The notes under the pieces: model-generated
What the model saw: only the letters and a program-made list of their open reading frames with translations
Database searches by the model: none
What the model was told of the DNA's origin: nothing
DNA from: an uncultured Nitrososphaerota archaeon
GTDB lineage: Archaea > Thermoproteota > Methanomethylicia > Nezhaarchaeales > WYZ-LMO8
Reading direction: 5' to 3'
Length of the DNA: 59,665 nucleotides
NCBI GenBank assembly: GCA_964586135.1
Contig: CAZPGS010000002.1
Location: 1-59,665 of the forward strand
Program-made: the position numbers and the translations under genes
In this document: positions 1 through 19,985 of the stretch, piece by piece
Position numbering within the stretch: position 1 is the stretch's first letter
Layout: each line of letters begins with the position of its first letter

Positions 1-94
1 GGCTGGCGCCTCACGGCGCCGCGCTCCCCGACGGAGGGGGACTTTCCTCAGGTGCGCGATGACACCCGAAGGCTGCCCGACCTCTCCCGGCACC
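1..94 (-). ncRNA. rnpB: RNase P RNA, 5' portion (runs off the left window edge)
   Basis: The reverse complement reads GGGUGCCGGGAGAGGUCGGGCAGCCUUCGGGUGUCAUCGCGCACCUGAGGAAAGUCCCCCUCCGUCGGGG... It contains the universal RNase P RNA CR-I/P4 motif GAGGAAAGUCC after GC-rich helices. No credible ORF is present. A TATA-like CTTAAATAC lies about 22-30 nt upstream. The 5' end is approximate. Confidence 0.7.
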
Positions 95-1686: not shown

Positions 1687-1965
1687 CTACCCCCCACCAG
1701 CCGGCGGAAATATGGAGATGGTAGAGCCGTCCCTGAGCTTAGCCCTCAACCCTCCGAGAAACATGCAATCTCTCCCGTCCACCAAGACTTTCAAATAACT
1801 CTTCAAGTCCTCTCCTTCAAAAATCAGCTCCTTGACCTCGGGCTTCTGATCGACTAGCGACTCTAGCAGTTGCCCCACAGTAGAGTCTTCAGCAAGTTCC
1901 ATCTCGATACTCTTCCAGCCCATGACATTTCTCAAAAAGCCGTAGACTTCTACCTTGACTTTCAA
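1687..1965 (-). CDS. MoaD/ThiS-family ubiquitin-like small protein (SAMP-like)
   Basis: 92 aa with beta-grasp-like sequence and a C-terminal ...SIFPPAGGG ending typical of the MoaD/ThiS/SAMP family. It is divergently transcribed from the tungstopterin-type AOR gene. Confidence 0.7.
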   Translation of the reverse strand: MKVKVEVYGFLRNVMGWKSIEMELAEDSTVGQLLESLVDQKPEVKELIFEGEDLKSYLKVLVDGRDCMFLGGLRAKLRDGSTISIFPPAGGG

Positions 1966-1995
1966 GAGGGCCCCTTCAACTATCTCCTTAAAAAC

Positions 1996-2004
1996 TTTAA
2001 AAAA
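1996..2004 (+). promoter_or_regulatory. TATA-like box upstream of the AOR::HPS gene
   Basis: TTTAAAAAA lies about 32 nt upstream of the TTG at 2036. That start gives an N-terminus (M)GGYVGRMLEVDL that aligns with AOR-family N-termini. Confidence 0.35.
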
Positions 2005-2035
2005 TTTGAGGGAGAAAAAGCCTTGGGGACCAAGG

Positions 2036-4534
2036 TTGGGCGGCTACGTCGGAAGGATGCTTGAAGTGGACTTAACGAGGGACAATGTAGCGGTCATAGA
2101 CTTAGATTGGGACGTGGCCATGAAGTTCGTGGGTGGTAGGGGCTATGCGGTAAAGCTGCTCTTCGATCTATTGAGGCCGGGTATTGATCCGTTAAGCGAG
2201 GACAACATCTTAATATTCATGACCGGGCCCCTAACCGGTACTAGGGCTCCAGCATCAGGTAGATTCGTGGTATCTTCTAAGTCACCTCTAACGAACACCG
2301 TCTTCGATTCTCACTGCGGAGGGGCTTGGGGTCCTGAGTTGAAGAGAGCCGGCTTCGATGGAGTAATAATCAAGGGGAAGAGCCCTAGACCGGTGTACTT
2401 GTTCGTGAGCCACGGCAAGGCCGAGATACGTGACGCGAGCAGAATGTGGGGCCTCGAAACGGACGCCACAACAGATGCTATTAAGAGAGATATAGGGCTT
2501 GACGACGTCAAGGTCTGTTGTATAGGTCCCGCTGGCGAAAACCGAGTAAAGTTTGCCTGCATAATAAGCGAGAGGCATAGAGCTGCTGGAAGAGGCGGCC
2601 TAGGTGCGGTAATGGGCTCCAAAAACCTGAAGGCTATAGCGGTCAAGGGCACGGGCGAGGTCACGGTCGCAAACCCCAAGGCGTTTAACGAGGAAGCCAA
2701 GAAGGCTCTGGAGGTCTTAAGGGGGAACCCGATAACAGGAGACAGCCTAGGGCGCTACGGGACGGCGTTCCTCGTGCACTTGATGAACAAAGCAGGCGTA
2801 TTGCCATCGTACAACTTCACGCGGGGCTTCTTTGAGGGGGCCGAGGACGTGTGCGGTGAGAGGATCACGGAGACCATGCTCGTGAAGAGAACGGCCTGCT
2901 ACGGCTGTCCGATAGCCTGTGCTCGCCTGATAAAGTACAAGATCGGCGAAGAAGTTGTGTCCTCTGGGCCAGAGTACGAAAGCGTATGGGCCTTAGGGCC
3001 GAATTGCGGAATATGGAATGTAAACGTCATAGTACGAGCAAACGATCTGTGCAATAAGTTGGGCTTGGACACGATTTCGATGGGTAACGTGATAGGGTTC
3101 CTCATGGAGTGCCACGAGAGGGGGCTTTTAAAAGGGCTTGGCGAGGTCGACCTAAAGCTCAATTTCGGCAACTCCGATGCGCTGTTGAAATTAATTGTGG
3201 ACACGGCCTACAAGAGGGGGCTCGGTGCGCTGGCGAGCGAGGGGGTCAGCAGAATAGCGAAGACCCTTGGCGCAGAGGACATGGCCGCTCACGTGAAGGG
3301 GCTCGAGCTACCAGCTTACGATCCGCGAGGGGCCAAGGGGATGGCACTAGCCTACGCCACCTCCAACAGGGGGGGTTGCCACTTGAGGGCTTACGTCGTG
3401 ATGAGCGAGATACTCGGAGTCCCTAGATACATAGACCCCTTATCGTATGAAGGCAAGGCCGAGCTGGTCAAGAGGCTCCAAGATGTCTCGGCGGTGATAG
3501 ACTCGCTTGTGATGTGTAAGTACACCATGTTGGCGCTTTTCTCAACGCTAGCTTACGAGCCGACGCACTACGCAAGGCTCCTGACGACGGCAACGGGCTT
3601 CTACGTCGATGAAGAAGAGTTTTACAAGGTGGGGGAGAGGATTTACAACCTCGAGAGGCTGTTCAACATCAGAGAGGGATTCGGTAGGCCTCACGACGTC
3701 CTACCCCTAAGGTTCTTGAGGGAGCCGCTAAGAGAGGGCCCTGCTAAGGGAGAGGTCGTTGACTTAACGAGACTCCTCGACGCCTACTACATGGTCAGGG
3801 GTTGGAACTACGACGGAGTACCGATGGACAAAAAGCTTCGCCAACTAGGCCTGGAGCCCTTGTACACAGGGCCTAAACTTCAAGTAGCAATAGACGAGAG
3901 GTACTTAAAGGACGGCTTGAGCATAGCAGAGGCCTGCTACAGAGGAGGGGCCGAGATCCTCGAAGTTGGGACGCCCCTCATAAAGTCCGCTGGCCTAGAG
4001 GCCGTGAGAGAGTTTAGGAGGAGGTTCCCCTACGCTACAATAGTCGCTGATTTGAAGACCTTCGATACCGGCTGGTTAGAGGTCGAATTGGCGGCCGAAT
4101 CGGGGGCCGACGTAGTGACAGTGCTGGGGGCAACCGACGACTATACGATCAAAGACGCCGTAGGCGCAGCTAGGAAGTACAATGTCAAAATAATGTGCGA
4201 CCTGATAAATGTTCCAGACCCCCTCACTAGGGCCAAAGAGGTGGAGAGGCTTGGATGCGATATAATATGCGTTCACATGGGCATAAGCGTGCAAATGAGG
4301 GAGAGAGACGTGACCAAGAAGATGGCCATGCTCAAGGAGATAGTCAAGAGCGTCAAGGTCCCTGTGGCTGTAGCGGGCGGCGTAAGGCTTGAGCACGTGG
4401 ACGACTTGGTAAGGTGCGGTTGCAAGATAATAATCGTGGGCTCGGCGATAACTAGGTCTTCCAGCCCCGAAGAGGCCACGAGAAGGTTTATAGCGACAAT
4501 ACGAGGGGCTTACGAGGGGCTCAAGAGCTCTTAG
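2036..4534 (+). CDS. Fusion protein: aldehyde/formaldehyde ferredoxin oxidoreductase (AOR family) N-terminal part plus 3-hexulose-6-phosphate synthase (HPS) C-terminal domain
   Basis: Single uninterrupted frame. The N-terminal roughly 610 aa carry AOR-family hallmarks (GGYVGRMLEVDL, FVGGRGYAVKLL, 4Fe-4S ligands in TACYGCPIAC, and the C-terminal YYMVRGWNYDGVP). From about nt 3875 the sequence KLQVAIDE...ILEVGTPLIK...VADLKTFDTG...GADVVTVLG...ICVHMGISVQ...AVAGGV...IIVGSAIT matches HPS/OMP-decarboxylase-fold HxlA-type enzymes. The longest ORF starts at 1955, but TTG 2036 (or ATG 2057) fits homologs better. Confidence 0.85.
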   Translation: MGGYVGRMLEVDLTRDNVAVIDLDWDVAMKFVGGRGYAVKLLFDLLRPGIDPLSEDNILIFMTGPLTGTRAPASGRFVVSSKSPLTNTVFDSHCGGAWGPELKRAGFDGVIIKGKSPRPVYLFVSHGKAEIRDASRMWGLETDATTDAIKRDIGLDDVKVCCIGPAGENRVKFACIISERHRAAGRGGLGAVMGSKNLKAIAVKGTGEVTVANPKAFNEEAKKALEVLRGNPITGDSLGRYGTAFLVHLMNKAGVLPSYNFTRGFFEGAEDVCGERITETMLVKRTACYGCPIACARLIKYKIGEEVVSSGPEYESVWALGPNCGIWNVNVIVRANDLCNKLGLDTISMGNVIGFLMECHERGLLKGLGEVDLKLNFGNSDALLKLIVDTAYKRGLGALASEGVSRIAKTLGAEDMAAHVKGLELPAYDPRGAKGMALAYATSNRGGCHLRAYVVMSEILGVPRYIDPLSYEGKAELVKRLQDVSAVIDSLVMCKYTMLALFSTLAYEPTHYARLLTTATGFYVDEEEFYKVGERIYNLERLFNIREGFGRPHDVLPLRFLREPLREGPAKGEVVDLTRLLDAYYMVRGWNYDGVPMDKKLRQLGLEPLYTGPKLQVAIDERYLKDGLSIAEACYRGGAEILEVGTPLIKSAGLEAVREFRRRFPYATIVADLKTFDTGWLEVELAAESGADVVTVLGATDDYTIKDAVGAARKYNVKIMCDLINVPDPLTRAKEVERLGCDIICVHMGISVQMRERDVTKKMAMLKEIVKSVKVPVAVAGGVRLEHVDDLVRCGCKIIIVGSAITRSSSPEEATRRFIATIRGAYEGLKSS

Positions 4535-6224
4535 CCGAGCTATCCGAGGCAGTCGACCTCTTGAGCCTGTGCTCCAGGCATGCCTTAACGAAGCCGTAGA
4601 ACAGAGGCGAAGGCCTATTTGGCCTCGACTTGAACTCTGGATGGGCCTGCGTCGCCACGAAGAATGGATGATCCTTAAGCTCGATGAATTCGACCCTTCG
4701 ATTATCAACGCTATACCCCGAGAAGACCATGCCGTAGCTCTGGAGGAGCGACCAGTAAGCAGGGTTTATCTCGTATCGGTGTCTGTGCCTCTCAAATATT
4801 ATCGGCCTGCCATAAAGCTCGTAGACTTTAGTTCCGGGCTCGAGGACCGTGGCTTGGGCTCCCAACCTCATCGTCCCGCCGACCTCTTTGACGTGATATT
4901 GCTCCGGCAACAAGTCCACGACGGGGTGACTAGTGGATGGATCCAGCTCTGTTGTGTTTGCGTCCTTAAGGCCCACGACGTTCCTCACGAACTCCACAAC
5001 AGCTAATTGCATACCAAAGCATATACCCAAAAAGGGGATCTTGTTCTCCCTTGCATACTTAATCACCTTCATCTTACCTTCAGCGCCGCGTGCTCCGAAG
5101 CCCGGCAGGACTACTATGCCGTCGCACGAGCTCAAAATCTCTTGGTACTCTCTTGGTATCTCCTCGCCTTGGTCGAGCGGTGTAGCCTCAAGCCAGGTCA
5201 TGTTAACCTTAGTCTCGAGGGCAGCCCCTGCATGCTTTAAGGCCTCTATTATGCTAATGTAGGAGTCCTTCAACCTCGTGTACTTGCCGCACATGCAAAC
5301 ATTGACTTCATGCTTGTGGAACTTGTGCCTCCTCACCACTTCCTTCCAAGAAGACCAGTCCGCCTTGGCGCCATCCAACATCAATCGCCTACAGATGTAG
5401 TCACCCATCCCTTGTTCGTCTAGTATTATTGGTAGCTCGTATATGCACTCGATGTTGTAAGAAGTGAAGACGGCTTCCTCACGGACGTTGCTGTAAAGCG
5501 CTATCTTCTTCTTAGATTCCTCGTCTAGTGGGTACTTACATCGTGCTACTATTACATCGGGCTGTATGCCAATACGCCTGAGCTCTTGCACGCTATGCTG
5601 GAGGGGCTTCGTCTTGAATTCTCCGGTCACCTCAAGTATTGGCACGAGGGCCACGTGTACGAAGAGGGTGTTCGAAGGGCTCTCCTCAAGCCTCATCTGC
5701 CTGATGGCCTCGAGAAATGGGAGGCCCTCTATGTCCCCCGTAGTGCCCCCACACTCAACAAGGGTCACGTCTGCATGGCTTCTCTGAGCTACAGATCGTA
5801 TTCTCCTCTTCACCTCATCAGTTACGTGCGGTATTATTTGCACGCACTTGCCGAGGTACTTGCCCTTTCTCTCGGCCTCTATGACTGCCATGTAGACCTG
5901 TCCCGTCGTGATGTTGTTGTCCTTTGAGAGGTCTATGTCGAGAAAACGCTCGTAGTGGCCAAGATCTAGGTCTACTTCACCTCCATCTTCTGTCACAAAG
6001 ACCTCGCCATGCATGTATACCCGGCTCTAAGCACGAGGCTTAGAGCCTATGGGTTCATGGTTCCTGCATCGACGTTTATGTCTACCCGGCCCACGGGCCT
6101 ATGGGTCTATCTTTATCGCCGTTACCGAGAAGCCCTTGACTCGTAACATCTTACCTATCGATGCTGTCACGGCTCCTTTGCCTACGCCCGACAGGACACC
6201 TCCCGTAATGAATATGTACTTCAT
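4521..6224 (-). CDS. pyrG: CTP synthase, interrupted by two predicted micro-introns
   Basis: Exons on the minus strand are 6224..6101, 6081..6049 and 6016..4521, totalling 1653 nt (550 aa). Exon 1 encodes [41 protein letters not shown], exon 2 (Y)[10 protein letters not shown](Y), and exon 3 [24 protein letters not shown]... through the glutamine amidotransferase domain (GICFGMQ, HRHRYE). The continuous ORF 4521..6014 alone lacks the universal N-terminal P-loop region. Confidence 0.9.
6017..6048 (-). other. predicted BHB micro-intron 2 of pyrG (32 nt)
   Basis: RNA sequence is A-GGCUCUAAG-CCUCGUG-CUUAGAGCC-GGGU-AU. A 9-bp hairpin is flanked by the 4-bp helix ACCC(exon)/GGGU(intron) and two 3-nt bulges AUA/AUA. 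The outer helix is CAUG/CAUG. Cutting after the second nt of each bulge gives the AAC CCA UAC AUG CAU junction (NPYMH). Confidence 0.75.
6082..6100 (-). other. predicted BHB micro-intron 1 of pyrG (19 nt)
   Basis: RNA sequence is A-GGCC-CGUG-GGCC-GGGU-AG. A GC hairpin is flanked by the 4-bp helix ACCC/GGGU and the 3-nt bulges AUA and AGA. Cutting after the second bulge nt gives the GAC CCA UAC AUA AAC junction (DPYIN). The outer exon-exon helix is weak (relaxed HBh' type). Confidence 0.7.
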
Positions 6225-10637: not shown

Positions 10638-11720
10638 GTGAGAGCCTCGCTGTGTATAATATACGACGACATCTTCATGAAGCACAATCCCGACCCATAC
10701 CATCCCGAGAGCCCTCGAAGGCTCGCGGAGATAATCAAAGAGCTCAACGGAAGAGGGGTTCTCGCCAAAGTTAAAGTGGAGAGGGCTGTTAAGGCCTCGC
10801 TAAGTGACGTGGTGAGGGTCCATGATGAGGACTACGTCAAGTACGTAGAGAGGGCCATTGCAAGCGGCGCGAGATACGTAGATCCCGACACTCAAGTGTC
10901 AAAGGAGAGCTTCGAGGTGGCCCTTTACGCTGCGGGCTCCAGCATATACGGTTGCGAAAAGGTCTTGAACGATGACTTCGATGTCTGCTTCGTGTTAGAG
11001 AGACCTCCAGGGCATCACGCGGGTAAGGCTGGTGCTGCCTTGGGGGCCCCAACACTAGGCTTCTGCCTCTTCAACAACGTCGCCATAGCAACGAAGCATT
11101 TGATCGAAGAGCGCGGACTGAAAAGGATAGCCATATTCGACTTCGACTGCCATCACGGTAACGGCACGCAAGAAATATTCTATCGAGACGGGTCGGTCCT
11201 TTACATAAGCACTCACCAAGATGGTAGGACGGCTTACCCAGGCACGGGATTTGTTGACGAAGTGGGAGAGGGGGAGGGAAGAGGCTACAACGTCAACGTC
11301 CCACTTCCACCCCTTACAGGCGATGACGTCTACGAAGAGGTCTTAGAGAAAGTTGTGGGTAGACTGCTAAAAGAATACAGGCCAGAAGTCTTGTTGTTGT
11401 CAGCAGGGTTCGACGCGCATAAAGACGATCCGTTGACGTCCATGGGCCTCTCGCTGAACTCGTACGTCAAGATAGCCGAGCTCGTCAAGGGGCTCATGAA
11501 CGAAGGGATCACGAAAAAAGCCGTCTTCGTACTCGAAGGGGGCTACGGCCCAGGGCTTGCATGGGGGGTTTACGACATAATAGCATACTTCATTGGTATG
11601 CCGTTGATAGAGGAGGGCAAGACGACCTCTTCTGAAAGAGTGAAGAGGGAAGGCTTAAAAGTGGTGAGCGAGGTCTACGAGAAGGTTTTGAGGCCCTACT
11701 GGGGGATTGAGGCTTGTTAA
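10638..11720 (+). CDS. histone deacetylase-family protein (AcuC/acetylpolyamine amidohydrolase-like)
   Basis: GTG start. HPESPRRL, ERPPGHHAG, FDFDCHHGNGTQ and LEGGY motifs of the class I/II HDAC superfamily. Confidence 0.85.
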   Translation: MRASLCIIYDDIFMKHNPDPYHPESPRRLAEIIKELNGRGVLAKVKVERAVKASLSDVVRVHDEDYVKYVERAIASGARYVDPDTQVSKESFEVALYAAGSSIYGCEKVLNDDFDVCFVLERPPGHHAGKAGAALGAPTLGFCLFNNVAIATKHLIEERGLKRIAIFDFDCHHGNGTQEIFYRDGSVLYISTHQDGRTAYPGTGFVDEVGEGEGRGYNVNVPLPPLTGDDVYEEVLEKVVGRLLKEYRPEVLLLSAGFDAHKDDPLTSMGLSLNSYVKIAELVKGLMNEGITKKAVFVLEGGYGPGLAWGVYDIIAYFIGMPLIEEGKTTSSERVKREGLKVVSEVYEKVLRPYWGIEAC

Positions 11721-12729
11721 CGGTGGTCGTCGGAGGCTTCTTTGGAGACGAGGGAAAGGCCTCGGCCCCCTAGAAGGGAAGATATGCGCCTATCTCTCAT
11801 TAAAAGATGACGTAAAGGTCGCCGTTAGGACTGGCTCGGTAAACGCCGGCCACACGGTGGTCTACAACAATAAGGAGTACAAACTAAGAATCGTGCCCTG
11901 TGGGTTCGTAAACCCACGTGCTACGCTGTGTATAGCCGCAGGGGCCAACGTGAGGATCGACGTCTTGATGAAGGAGCTGGAGCTCACGAACACCAAGGGC
12001 CGGTTGAAAATAGATCCTCAAGCATCCATAATCGAAGACGAGCACGTAAAGAGGGAGAGGGAAGATCAGTTCCTCATCTCCAAGATAGGCTCGACGGGGC
12101 AGGGGGTCGGGGCAGCAGTAGTCGACAGGGTCAGGAGAGTGGCTAGGCTCGCTCGCGATGTGAAGGAGCTAAGCGAGTACTTGGACGACGTGTCCATGAT
12201 CGTCTGGAGGGCATTGCAACAAGGCCAAAACGTGCTACTCGAGGGCACGCAGGGATACTACCTGTCCCTATACCACGGAACATATCCCTATGTCACGAGC
12301 CGGGACACGACGGCCTCAGCCGTCTGTAGCGAGGTGGGCATAGGCCCCAAAATAGTTGACGAGGTCGTTGTAGTCTTCAAGACTTACGTAACAAGAGTTG
12401 GAGGGGGGCCTCTACCAGGCGAGCTCCCGGAGGAGGAGGCAGAGAAGCTGGGGCTGGTTGAGGTAGCAACGGTGACTGGGAGGAGGAGAAGGGCCGCTCC
12501 CTTCAACTTTGAGCTGGCGAAGAGGGCCGTCATAGCCAACAGCGCAACTCAAGTAGCTCTGACGAGAATTGACGTGCTGTTTCCATCAGCTTCAAGGGTC
12601 AGGAAGTACGATGAGTTGCCGCGTGAGGCGAAGGAATTCGTTGGAAAAGTAGAAGATGAGCTAAAGGTCCCCGTGACCATACTCAGCACAGGCCCTGACG
12701 TCTTTGACACCATAGACCTGAGAGACTAA
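11714..12729 (+). CDS. purA: adenylosuccinate synthetase, interrupted by a predicted 17-nt micro-intron
   Basis: Exons 11714..11756 and 11774..12729 (999 nt). Exon 1 (TTG 11714 or GTG 11723) encodes (M)LTVVVGGFFGDEGK and exon 2 continues GKICAYLS...SVNAGHTV...TGQGVGAAVVDR...GTQG. The spliced junction restores the PurA P-loop GDEGKGK. The longest-ORF start (TTG 11707) yields an out-of-frame N-terminus, MRLVNGGRRRLLWRRGKGLGPLE. Confidence 0.9.
11757..11773 (+). other. predicted BHB micro-intron of purA (17 nt)
   Basis: RNA sequence is A-GGCC-UC-GGCC-CCCU-AG. A GC hairpin is flanked by the 4-bp helix AGGG(exon, 11751..11754)/CCCU(intron, 11768..11771) and the 3-nt bulges AAA and AGA. Cutting after the second nt of each bulge gives GAG GGA AAA GGG AAG (EGKGK). 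The insert contains an in-frame TAG. Confidence 0.7.
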
Positions 12730-18599: not shown

Positions 18600-19985
18600 G
18601 AAAGTACAGACATAGCTACAGCGAGAAAGTCATCGACTTTGTCAAAGAGGTCATGAGAGAATATGGGCCCCGACTCGCTGAAAGCGAGGCCGAGTTGAAG
18701 GCTGGCGAGCACGTATATAAGCTAATGCCCAAGTTTTGCGATGAGGTCCAGAAGGATTGATTCACTTCAAGGCCGAGAGGGTTTACGGGCTACATATGGG
18801 TCGTATTCTTCCTTTGCCTCCTCGGTACAGCACTGTATTTCATGGGCTTTTGGTTTGTAATATTTGTCCTCACCCTCTTCGAATTATCGAGATTTGTCCT
18901 TCACCAATGCCTACACTATGAGGTTGTTGACCTCCTATTCCCGAGGGCCCAAGAGTTCCACATCGTTGATAGGACCTTTCCGTCGGGAACTCCGAAGAAT
19001 AAAATCCTACTCTCCGCCTGCTACGATTCTCCATACGAGTTCCCACTATTGAGTAGGCTGAGGATGAGGCCGCCACTCCTTATACTATCAACAGTAGCGA
19101 TGGTCGTTATCACGGGTTTCTTAGGACTGTTAAGGTACTTTTACGATGTCGATGCGATTCAAAGGCCAATGCTGATCGTAAGCGCGTGCCTTCTCTTCGT
19201 GCTTGCTGCGCTTCGAGGTCCAACAAGGTATTCCTGGCTCAAACGACGATCTCGCTGGCGTTGGAGTTGTTCTTGAAGCTGGGAGATATCTCAGCACGAA
19301 TAGGTTAAAGAATACCGAGGTTTGGATCGTCGTGTTTGCCGGAGAAGGGCACATGCGAGGTTCGAAGAGGTTTGTCAAAAAATACTTCGATAAGCTCAAG
19401 GACTCGATTCTGTTTAACTTTAAGCGCCCCTCTCGTGAGTACTTCTTAGTTGCCACCGAAGAAAGGCTGTTCTTCGCCAAACACCCTCAAAGGGCCGTAG
19501 AGATAGCAAAGAGGGCTTGTGAGAGGGTCGGCGCTAACTTCAAGGTCGGTCCCTTGCCGTTTGCGGGTGGTGATGCGGCGAACTTTTTGAGGAAAGGCCT
19601 TCATGCTGTGACGATGTTTGGCTTACTGTTTGTCCCTAAATGCTCATCCTCATTAGTCTATTTCTATTCGTCGCATCTAGGGATTTCCGCCTCGCGCGCT
19701 ATTAGCGCGGTTCGTGGGCGTTCGAGCCCAACGGCACGGGACTCCCACCTACCTCCGCCCCGCCCAGGCTCGGAGCGCCGCTCCCATCGCCTGAGCGGGC
19801 TCTGAGCAATAAACGGTATCAGAGCTTCAAACTCAACATCTAAACATCAACTACGAAACAGCCCAGACGGTGCTCCATATTGCTGGCACACGCTTGAAGA
19901 TATGCCAGAAAAGCTAAAACCGGCCTCTATCACGAAGGCCGTAGAAATAGCGATCGAGATGGCAAAGTTAGTAGATGAGTCGTAA
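18600..19985 (+). pseudogene. M28-family (Iap-like) membrane-associated metallopeptidase, disrupted
   Basis: Recognisable segments are EKVIDFVKEVMREYGPRLAESEAELKAGEHVY, ILLSACYDS, IPGSNDDLAGVGVVLEAGRYL, GGDAANFLRKGLHAV and WHTLEDMPEKL...VDES*. Lesions are: no start codon in frame, an in-frame TGA at 18758..18760, a frameshift between about 19180 and 19215, and an in-frame TGA at 19803..19805 inside a GC-rich insert. Confidence 0.7.
19681..19807 (+). other. GC-rich structured insert inside the M28 pseudogene (tRNA-like T-arm/hairpins)
   Basis: This stretch is compositionally distinct (very GC-rich) within a roughly 45% GC gene. Hairpins are CGCGC-GCUAUUA-GCGCG (19693..19709), UGGGC-GUUCGA-GCCCA (19715..19730, T-arm-like GUUCGA loop), CAGGC..GGAGC-GCC-GCUCC..GCCUG, and a long-range GAGCCC/GGGCUC pairing. 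Confidence 0.4.

Follow-up and report, generated by a model that had tools for sequence, protein, structure and literature searches.

Predicted bulge-helix-bulge introns in pyrG and purA of a Nezhaarchaeota clade, with a common origin favoured for the pyrG pair

Two genes carrying three short inserts

The window analysed here comprises 59,665 nucleotides (nt) of contig CAZPGS010000002.1 from an uncultured archaeon (assembly GCA_964586135.1), and contains a pyrG gene, encoding CTP synthase, and a purA gene whose coding sequences are broken by three short inserts, two in pyrG and one in purA. Coordinates refer to this window, L-numbers such as L001 or L169 designate comparison loci and WIN stands for the window sequence. 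The comparison set consists of 160 pyrG loci from genomes and metagenomes (1.46 Mb in all), and a stretch of the source contig ENA ERZ27245635 k141_192822 (168.7 kb) that adds about 7 kb of DNA upstream of the window is referred to as L169. The closest pyrG loci are those of Candidatus Nezhaarchaeota/Nezhaarchaeales metagenome-assembled genomes, with 79-95% protein identity.

The pyrG gene runs on the minus strand from an ATG at 6224 to a stop at 4521 and its N-terminal coding part is interrupted twice. Exon 1 (6101-6224) opens with ATG 6224-6222, conserved in L001-L008, and comprises 41 codons plus the U of a Tyr codon; its last six nucleotides are ACCC (6106-6103), the exon strand of the central helix (H), followed by AU, the first two positions of the 5′ bulge. 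Predicted intron 1 (6082-6100, 19 nt) is made up of A, the hairpin GGCC CGUG GGCC (h′), GGGU and AG, the GGGU pairing with the exon ACCC and the 3′ bulge being AG|A. After exon 2 (6049-6081, 33 nt), which encodes 10 residues between two split Tyr codons, comes predicted intron 2 (6017-6048, 32 nt), composed of A, a 10-bp h′ hairpin (GGCUCUAAGC CUCGU GCUUAGAGCC), GGGU and AU, with AU|A as its 3′ bulge. Exon 3 (4521-6016) extends from the AC of a Tyr codon to the stop. Read on the minus strand, site 1 is ...AAG AUA GAC CCA U|AGGCCCGUGGGCCGGGUAG|AC AUA AAC... and site 2 is ...AUG AAC CCA U|AGGCUCUAAGCCUCGUGCUUAGAGCCGGGUAU|AC AUG CAU.... The 5′ bulge (AU|A) and the central helix (ACCC/GGGU) are the same at both inserts, and the minimum-free-energy folds of both regions are the H-bulge-h′ structure itself; intron 2 has a z of -4.25 and shows 3 compensatory pairs across 8 distinct orthologues.

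Removal of both inserts gives the canonical CTP synthase motif, with predicted spliced junctions GACCCAU|ACAUAAAC at site 1 and AACCCAU|ACAUGCA at site 2. The spliced PyrG matches Pfam CTP_synth_N over positions 1-265 of 265 (404.8 bits), compared with 54-265 (304.7 bits) for the called open reading frame (ORF). We also observed that exon 1 can be joined to exon 3 in frame with the loss of 11 residues, since exon 2 has 33 nt and CCAU|ACAU stands at both junctions; mis- or alternative joining is conceivable.

On the plus strand, purA exon 1 (11714-11756) starts with TTG, reads MLTVVVGGFFGDEG plus the A of a Lys codon, and ends in AGGG, its strand of the H helix, and the AA of the bulge. This TTG is kept in relatives; an alternative GTG at 11723 is not. 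The predicted intron (11757-11773) has 17 nt, AGGCCUCGGCCCCCUAG, consisting of A, GGC CUCG GCC, CCCU and AG, and exon 2 (11774-12729) continues with AA GGG AAG up to the stop. The insert lies inside GDEGK|GK, with helix AGGG/CCCU and bulges AA|A and AG|A. The predicted spliced junction is GAGGGAA|AAGGGAAG (GAGGGAA|AAGGG), and the spliced PurA gains 26 bits in its Pfam match.

Much of this anatomy had been anticipated by an earlier reading made without database searches (the sequence-only reading). The interval that it gave for the pyrG pair, 6017-6100, is bounded exactly by the last nucleotide of intron 2 and the first of intron 1, as read on the minus strand; the 10-mer ACCCAU|ACAU that it reported is present in both spliced pyrG junctions, both pyrG inserts have the termini AGGC...GCCGGGUA(G/U), and the purA insert does use a different helix. 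Of its two stem lengths, 4 and 9 bp, the first is right and the second should be 10 bp. Its statement that the introns are as short as the shortest transfer RNA (tRNA) introns reported for Thermoproteales goes too far: 17-19 nt is near the minimum, not at it, since archaeal tRNA introns reach down to 11 nt (PMC2738675). The host, judged by its nearest pyrG loci, belongs to the Nezhaarchaeota/Nezhaarchaeales and not to the Thermoproteales.

A relaxed bulge-helix-bulge motif and its conservation

Each insert forms a relaxed bulge-helix-bulge motif, that is, a 4-bp exon-intron helix, 3-nt A-N|A bulges and an intron hairpin. In pyrG as in purA, the 4-bp helix lies between two 3-nt bulges, one on either strand, and the h′ hairpin is present throughout, with 3-12 bp (3-4 or 10 bp in the window). 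The canonical hBHBh′ arrangement is not seen: the outer helix h is absent at pyrG intron 1 and irregular at intron 2, which makes the motif the relaxed HBh′ form, known to need enzyme types of broad specificity (PMC5829648, PMC12397907). Crystal structures of endonuclease-RNA complexes place the cut between bulge nucleotides 2 and 3 (PMC12397907), and a cut at this position restores frame and invariant residues exactly at all three sites.

The same rule can be applied to the tRNA-Ile(GAU) gene of the same contig (L169 1414-1504, minus strand; some 5.4 kb before the window begins), which contains a 13-nt canonical intron and reads CUCGG CUGA UA|A CCGACG UCAG AG|A CCGAG, with CUGA/UCAG as its helix. 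There it takes out the 13-nt intron and leaves a correct 7-nt anticodon loop. The tRNA intron resembles the inserts in its 4-bp central helix and in the cut between bulge nucleotides 2 and 3, and it shares the 3′ bulge AG|A with pyrG intron 1 and the purA intron. It differs from the inserts in that the anticodon stem supplies a proper outer helix and that a loop of only 6 nt stands where they have the h′ hairpin; its interior is unrelated in sequence to theirs.

A permissive bulge-helix-bulge scan was uninformative, with thousands of matches, and the strict A-N|A consensus (H4-A-N|A-hairpin-rcH4-A-N|A) was used instead. With this pattern the window gave 6 matches, compared with 2.25 +/- 1.4 for shuffled sequence, and the 3 matches with a GC-rich helix are exactly the two pyrG inserts and the purA insert.

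Among the comparison loci, both pyrG inserts are found in all 11 distinct sequences (WIN, L008, L084, L088, L001, L081, L002, L003, L082, L085 and L004) that make up one monophyletic Nezhaarchaeota clade in the PyrG tree. The sister group (L007, L092 and L013) has no pyrG inserts, and none of 121 distinct sequences of other archaeal pyrG genes carries an insert at these Pro-Tyr (PY) sites. Across the clade the lengths vary from 19 to 27 nt for intron 1 and from 30 to 33 nt for intron 2, most of them shifting the frame, while 97-100% of the stem cells remain paired, with compensatory changes at 2 pairs of intron 1 and 3 pairs of intron 2. The exons at both sites are constrained as well: ACCCAUA is present at both in 11/11 intron-bearing genes, as against 14% and 17% of the 121 intronless ones, and synonymous exon positions at both sites are frozen in the intron-bearing genes. 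Site 1 of pyrG in the intronless sister L007 (Nezhaarchaeales SZTDM-1b bin 4) reads ACCCATACAT and is unoccupied (around 3105-3120), so that the target may be older than the intron. As for purA, its intron is present in 7/7 clade loci that reach the gene, namely the window and L081, L083, L084, L086, L087 and L088 (near 4442-4475, minus strand), and is absent in 6 outgroup loci.

A second monophyletic clade, formed by Culexmicrobium (Culexarchaeia) and related genomes labelled Methanomethylicia, carries one pyrG intron of 21-28 nt, placed inside the codons for GKG and independent of the PY-site introns. We found it in 8 distinct sequences (L009, 3048-3071; L011, 2977-3002; L012, 2975-3002; L015, 2977-3002; L016, 1848-1872; L018, 2981-3002; L093, 968-995; L099, 4999-5019). 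All of them follow the pattern GGGG AA|A-hairpin-CCC(C/U) A(G/A)|A GG, with 100% pairing and 3 compensatory pairs. The purA site, AGGG AA|A...AG|A AGG, also in GKG codons, is closely similar to this Culexarchaeia site, which hints that GGGAA|AGG is a preferred target.

Restoration of the frame, conservation of position and structure across a clade and compensatory changes together indicate that the inserts behave as bulge-helix-bulge introns, and on this comparative evidence we consider it very probable that they are spliced from the pre-mRNA. Public gene calls treat the genes otherwise. They contain a 497-amino-acid (aa) 'CTP synthase' (4521-6014, minus strand) that starts after intron 2, pyrG exon 1 as a separate 41-aa CTP_synth_N ORF (L169 13019-13144), and a purA with a wrong, out-of-frame N-terminus (340 aa). 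If the inserts stayed in the RNA, as these calls and the lack of a spliced-form protein on record would suggest, the genes would be pseudogenes, split genes or genes for N-terminally truncated proteins. In 11/11 genomes an in-frame UAG (CCA U|AG) arises at the 5′ splice site of each PY-site intron. An unspliced mRNA would terminate there at once, and the product starting downstream would lack positions 1-53 of CTP_synth_N, that is, exons 1 and 2 with the SGVGKG and KIDPYINVD motifs. Yet exons 1 and 2 are intact and under purifying selection in the 11 genomes, the inserts vary in length and keep their pairing, the window holds no second pyrG or purA, and the same architecture recurs in another gene and in another lineage. 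Retention of the inserts thus appears very improbable.

Still less credible is translational bypassing, in which ribosomes would skip the inserts in the manner of phage T4 gene 60 or of the byp elements of mitochondria. Bypassing elements of this kind combine a take-off codon beside a stop codon with a hairpin, and the UAG directly after the Pro codon, followed by a stable hairpin, is indeed reminiscent of gene 60. However, intron 1 splits the Tyr codon as U|AC, and neither UAC nor UAU follows the insert (...GGGUAG|ACAU; in L003 and L004 ...GGGUAA|ACAU), so that bypassing cannot yield the invariant Tyr. There is no matching CCA landing codon either, and the 4-bp exon-intron helix and the symmetric 3-nt bulges, which bypassing does not require, are conserved. 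Two simpler possibilities were rejected. Read-through of the UAG, for example with pyrrolysine, is incompatible with insert lengths that mostly shift the frame, and a translated insert would destroy the DPYINVD motif; an assembly error is contradicted by the recurrence of the inserts in over 10 independent assemblies.

Origin of the two pyrG introns

How did two introns come to occupy the same target in one gene? The sequence-only reading saw a signature of duplication in their shared termini. This is a weak argument, since the termini largely characterise the intron class as a whole. Pairing with the exon ACCC forces the GGGU of both introns; the A at the front and the A-N|A bulges recur in the tRNA-Ile intron, in the purA intron and in the GKG-site introns of Culexarchaeia; a stem start GG is nearly universal in the class, and a shared GGC start is expected by chance in about 37% of cases. 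What does hold of its view that such introns spread is that the inserts behave as bulge-helix-bulge introns of protein genes and that the same 10-nt target is used twice, 33 nt apart.

That target, ACCCAU|ACAU, is found at both sites with this spacing in 11/11 genomes, the 10-mer being repeated because CTP synthase itself repeats [D/N]-P-Y-[I/M]. When N(CCC|GGG)ANA is taken as the model of a candidate site, 3 of the 186 sites in the window are occupied, and two of these three are the neighbours in pyrG. In addition, the basal L082 and L085 have a 27-nt intron 1 whose stem, GGCCUCU.../...AGAGGCC, differs from that of intron 2, GGCUCU.../...AGAGCC, by the insertion or deletion of one pair; the 6 shared pairs have a p of about 0.03-0.05, in a comparison chosen post hoc. 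Duplication is better supported by the 10-mer target, the 33-nt spacing and the resemblance of the basal stems than by the termini.

A model that brings these observations together is as follows. Nucleotides at the end of the exon (ACCC in pyrG, AGGG in purA) and four nucleotides close to the intron's 3′ terminus (GGGU or CCCU) would form a helix flanked by two 3-nt A-N|A bulges and closed on the far side by the intron hairpin. A tRNA splicing endonuclease would then cut each strand between its bulge nucleotides 2 and 3 and an RtcB-type ligase would join the exons, and an mRNA that escapes splicing would stop at the in-frame UAG of the 5′ splice site. Neither a splicing endonuclease nor an RtcB ligase gene is encoded in the 59.7 kb of the window. 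The pyrG introns and the purA intron would already have been present in the ancestor of one Nezhaarchaeota subclade, with vertical inheritance since. One pyrG intron would be a copy of the other, placed in the neighbouring ACCCAU|ACAU site, which is able to pair with GGGU; the route may have been ectopic repair or conversion at the DNA level, or reverse splicing. Taken as a whole, we lean towards this reading, in which all three inserts are genuine relaxed H-B-h′ pre-mRNA introns and the pyrG pair has a common origin, one copied from the other, and we regard copying into the neighbouring identical site as the most likely history of the pair, with moderate confidence.

Several observations weigh against it. 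With regard to the introns themselves, there is no outer exon-exon helix h at pyrG intron 1; the purA motif is a near alternative and not the minimum-free-energy fold; the purA intron is conserved without covariation, and the covariation in pyrG comes down to a few changes in sequences that are related. In intron 2 of three genomes (GGGC), and in the purA intron of one genome, an A.C mismatch takes the place of the outermost H pair. No protein spanning the junctions at more than 81% identity was found among 5.8 billion clusters, which means that public collections hold neither a curated nor a transcript-derived spliced model. With regard to copying, the shared termini occur across the class (p about 0.37), in the window the two introns have only the GGC/GCC stem start in common, the stem resemblance was picked post hoc, and the intron interiors are unalignable in most genomes. 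The sequence-only reading expected related introns elsewhere, and none came to light in the window, among some 170 kb of clade DNA, in the 160 loci or in viral contigs, searches that covered only a small part of any one genome: the 10-mer in the window, the intron pattern in the 160 loci, a strict scan of the 1.46 Mb and two scans of viral contigs all gave nothing beyond pyrG itself and chance matches. It had also proposed dating the gains by comparison with sister species. This comparison would place the introns in the ancestry of the clade and gives no order for the gains, since the genomes examined have both pyrG introns or neither and never just one. Finally, preferred sites can evidently be colonised separately, since similar GGGAA|AGG sites are occupied in different genes and lineages.

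This last point leads to the alternative that the two pyrG introns are real bulge-helix-bulge introns gained independently, their resemblance being convergence. The endonuclease would need a strong helix of 4 bp, bulges of the A-N|A type and a hairpin clamped by G-C pairs, and the introns would lie at the gene's only two ACCCAUA sites, which the repeated Pro-Tyr codons happen to provide. The class-wide termini, the differing loops and inner stems and the lack of other copies all agree with such a history, and with 5 candidate sites in spliced pyrG an identical pair would be hit by chance about 1 time in 10. Against it stand the low occupancy of candidate sites (3/186 in 59.7 kb, yet two of them 33 nt apart), the likeness of the basal intron 1 stem to that of intron 2 and the constant co-occurrence of the two introns. 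We rate independent gain as possible rather than probable, and copying of one pyrG intron from the other remains the history that we prefer.

A wider proposal would be that a still-active family of mini-introns is colonising conserved, GC-rich N-SSS-A-N|A sites within the best conserved codons of housekeeping genes in Nezhaarchaeota and Culexarchaeia, which at present seems rather unlikely. Were it true, the pyrG pair would represent the captured duplication of an intron into a neighbouring identical target, many 'truncated' genes in genomes of these two lineages would turn out to contain introns, and archaeal mRNAs would acquire introns by the same logic as that of tRNA intron transposition.

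Surrounding features and known systems

Other features of the window and its flank deserve mention. The window begins inside an archaeal RNase P RNA gene (1-88, minus strand). Immediately upstream on the source contig (around L169 1599-7008) come a 16S-23S ribosomal RNA (rRNA) operon, tRNA-Ile and tRNA-Ala; the 23S match spans 3150 nt (L169 1599-4748) compared with the 2987 positions of the Rfam model; no convincing mini-intron was found in the rRNA of L169. At 1955-4534 (plus strand) an 859-aa ORF encodes an aldehyde:ferredoxin oxidoreductase (AFOR_N, AFOR_C) fused to an OMP-decarboxylase/HUMPS-family domain. Two overlapping ORFs of 144 and 200 aa in different frames (18842-19805, plus strand) together resemble a membrane-anchored M28-type peptidase. 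They were considered as a fourth intron case and rejected, as no bulge-helix-bulge motif bridges them; they may represent a frameshift, a pseudogene or two separate genes.

In the accessible literature, only cbf5 has been cited since 2002 as an archaeal mRNA with a tRNA-type intron, and a structural paper of 2025 still cites only the cbf5 work in this context (PMC12397907). Our literature search found no paper that links Nezhaarchaeota, CTP synthase, pyrG, purA or related classes with such introns. The introns described here share several properties with those of crenarchaeal cbf5 (Watanabe 2002, Yoshinari 2006, Yokobori 2009): they are short bulge-helix-bulge introns of a protein gene, often with a relaxed motif, they lie inside the codons of a highly conserved or catalytic motif, and they are lineage-specific and vertically inherited. 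The cbf5 introns have been attributed to a splicing endonuclease of broad specificity and hetero-oligomeric structure, and a similar attribution would fit the present ones. The differences concern the genes and hosts, which here are pyrG and purA in Nezhaarchaeota and in Culexarchaeia and relatives, the presence of two introns with identical targets in one gene (pyrG), and the size, which at 17-33 nt is even below the 33-39 bp of the cbf5 introns (PMC2738675). Splicing of cbf5 was demonstrated experimentally, whereas the pyrG and purA introns are known here from their sequences. A strain of Methanonezhaarchaeia is now in culture (PMC12700198), which makes reverse transcription PCR feasible. 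The matter has a practical side, since essential genes that are split or truncated by gene callers affect metabolic reconstructions and completeness estimates of uncultured lineages. Moreover, it becomes testable whether such introns are gained by being copied into sites where the motif can form again, or in some other way.

The nearest precedent for such copying is the transposition of tRNA introns in Thermoproteales (Fujishima et al. 2010, via PMC4090602). Introns appeared there at new sites that can re-form the motif, spread at the DNA level was proposed with the motif specifying the target, and many near-identical introns occur across different tRNA genes. The present case consists of two very short introns in one protein gene of another lineage, with weak similarity beyond what the structure dictates and no other copies found. 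A more distant parallel is provided by HAC1/XBP1, spliced by IRE1 and RtcB or Trl1. There too a short, frame-changing mRNA intron (26 nt in XBP1) is excised by a protein endonuclease at structured sites, a tRNA ligase seals the exons and a message left unspliced yields a truncated or otherwise different product; the nuclease is IRE1, however, the stem-loop cut sites are others and the process is regulated by stress, whereas pyrG and purA give no evidence of regulation. To the kind of intron known from cbf5, the introns described here add two genes (pyrG and purA) and four insertion sites in two candidate phyla, and they include the first case of two bulge-helix-bulge introns with one target sequence in a single gene.

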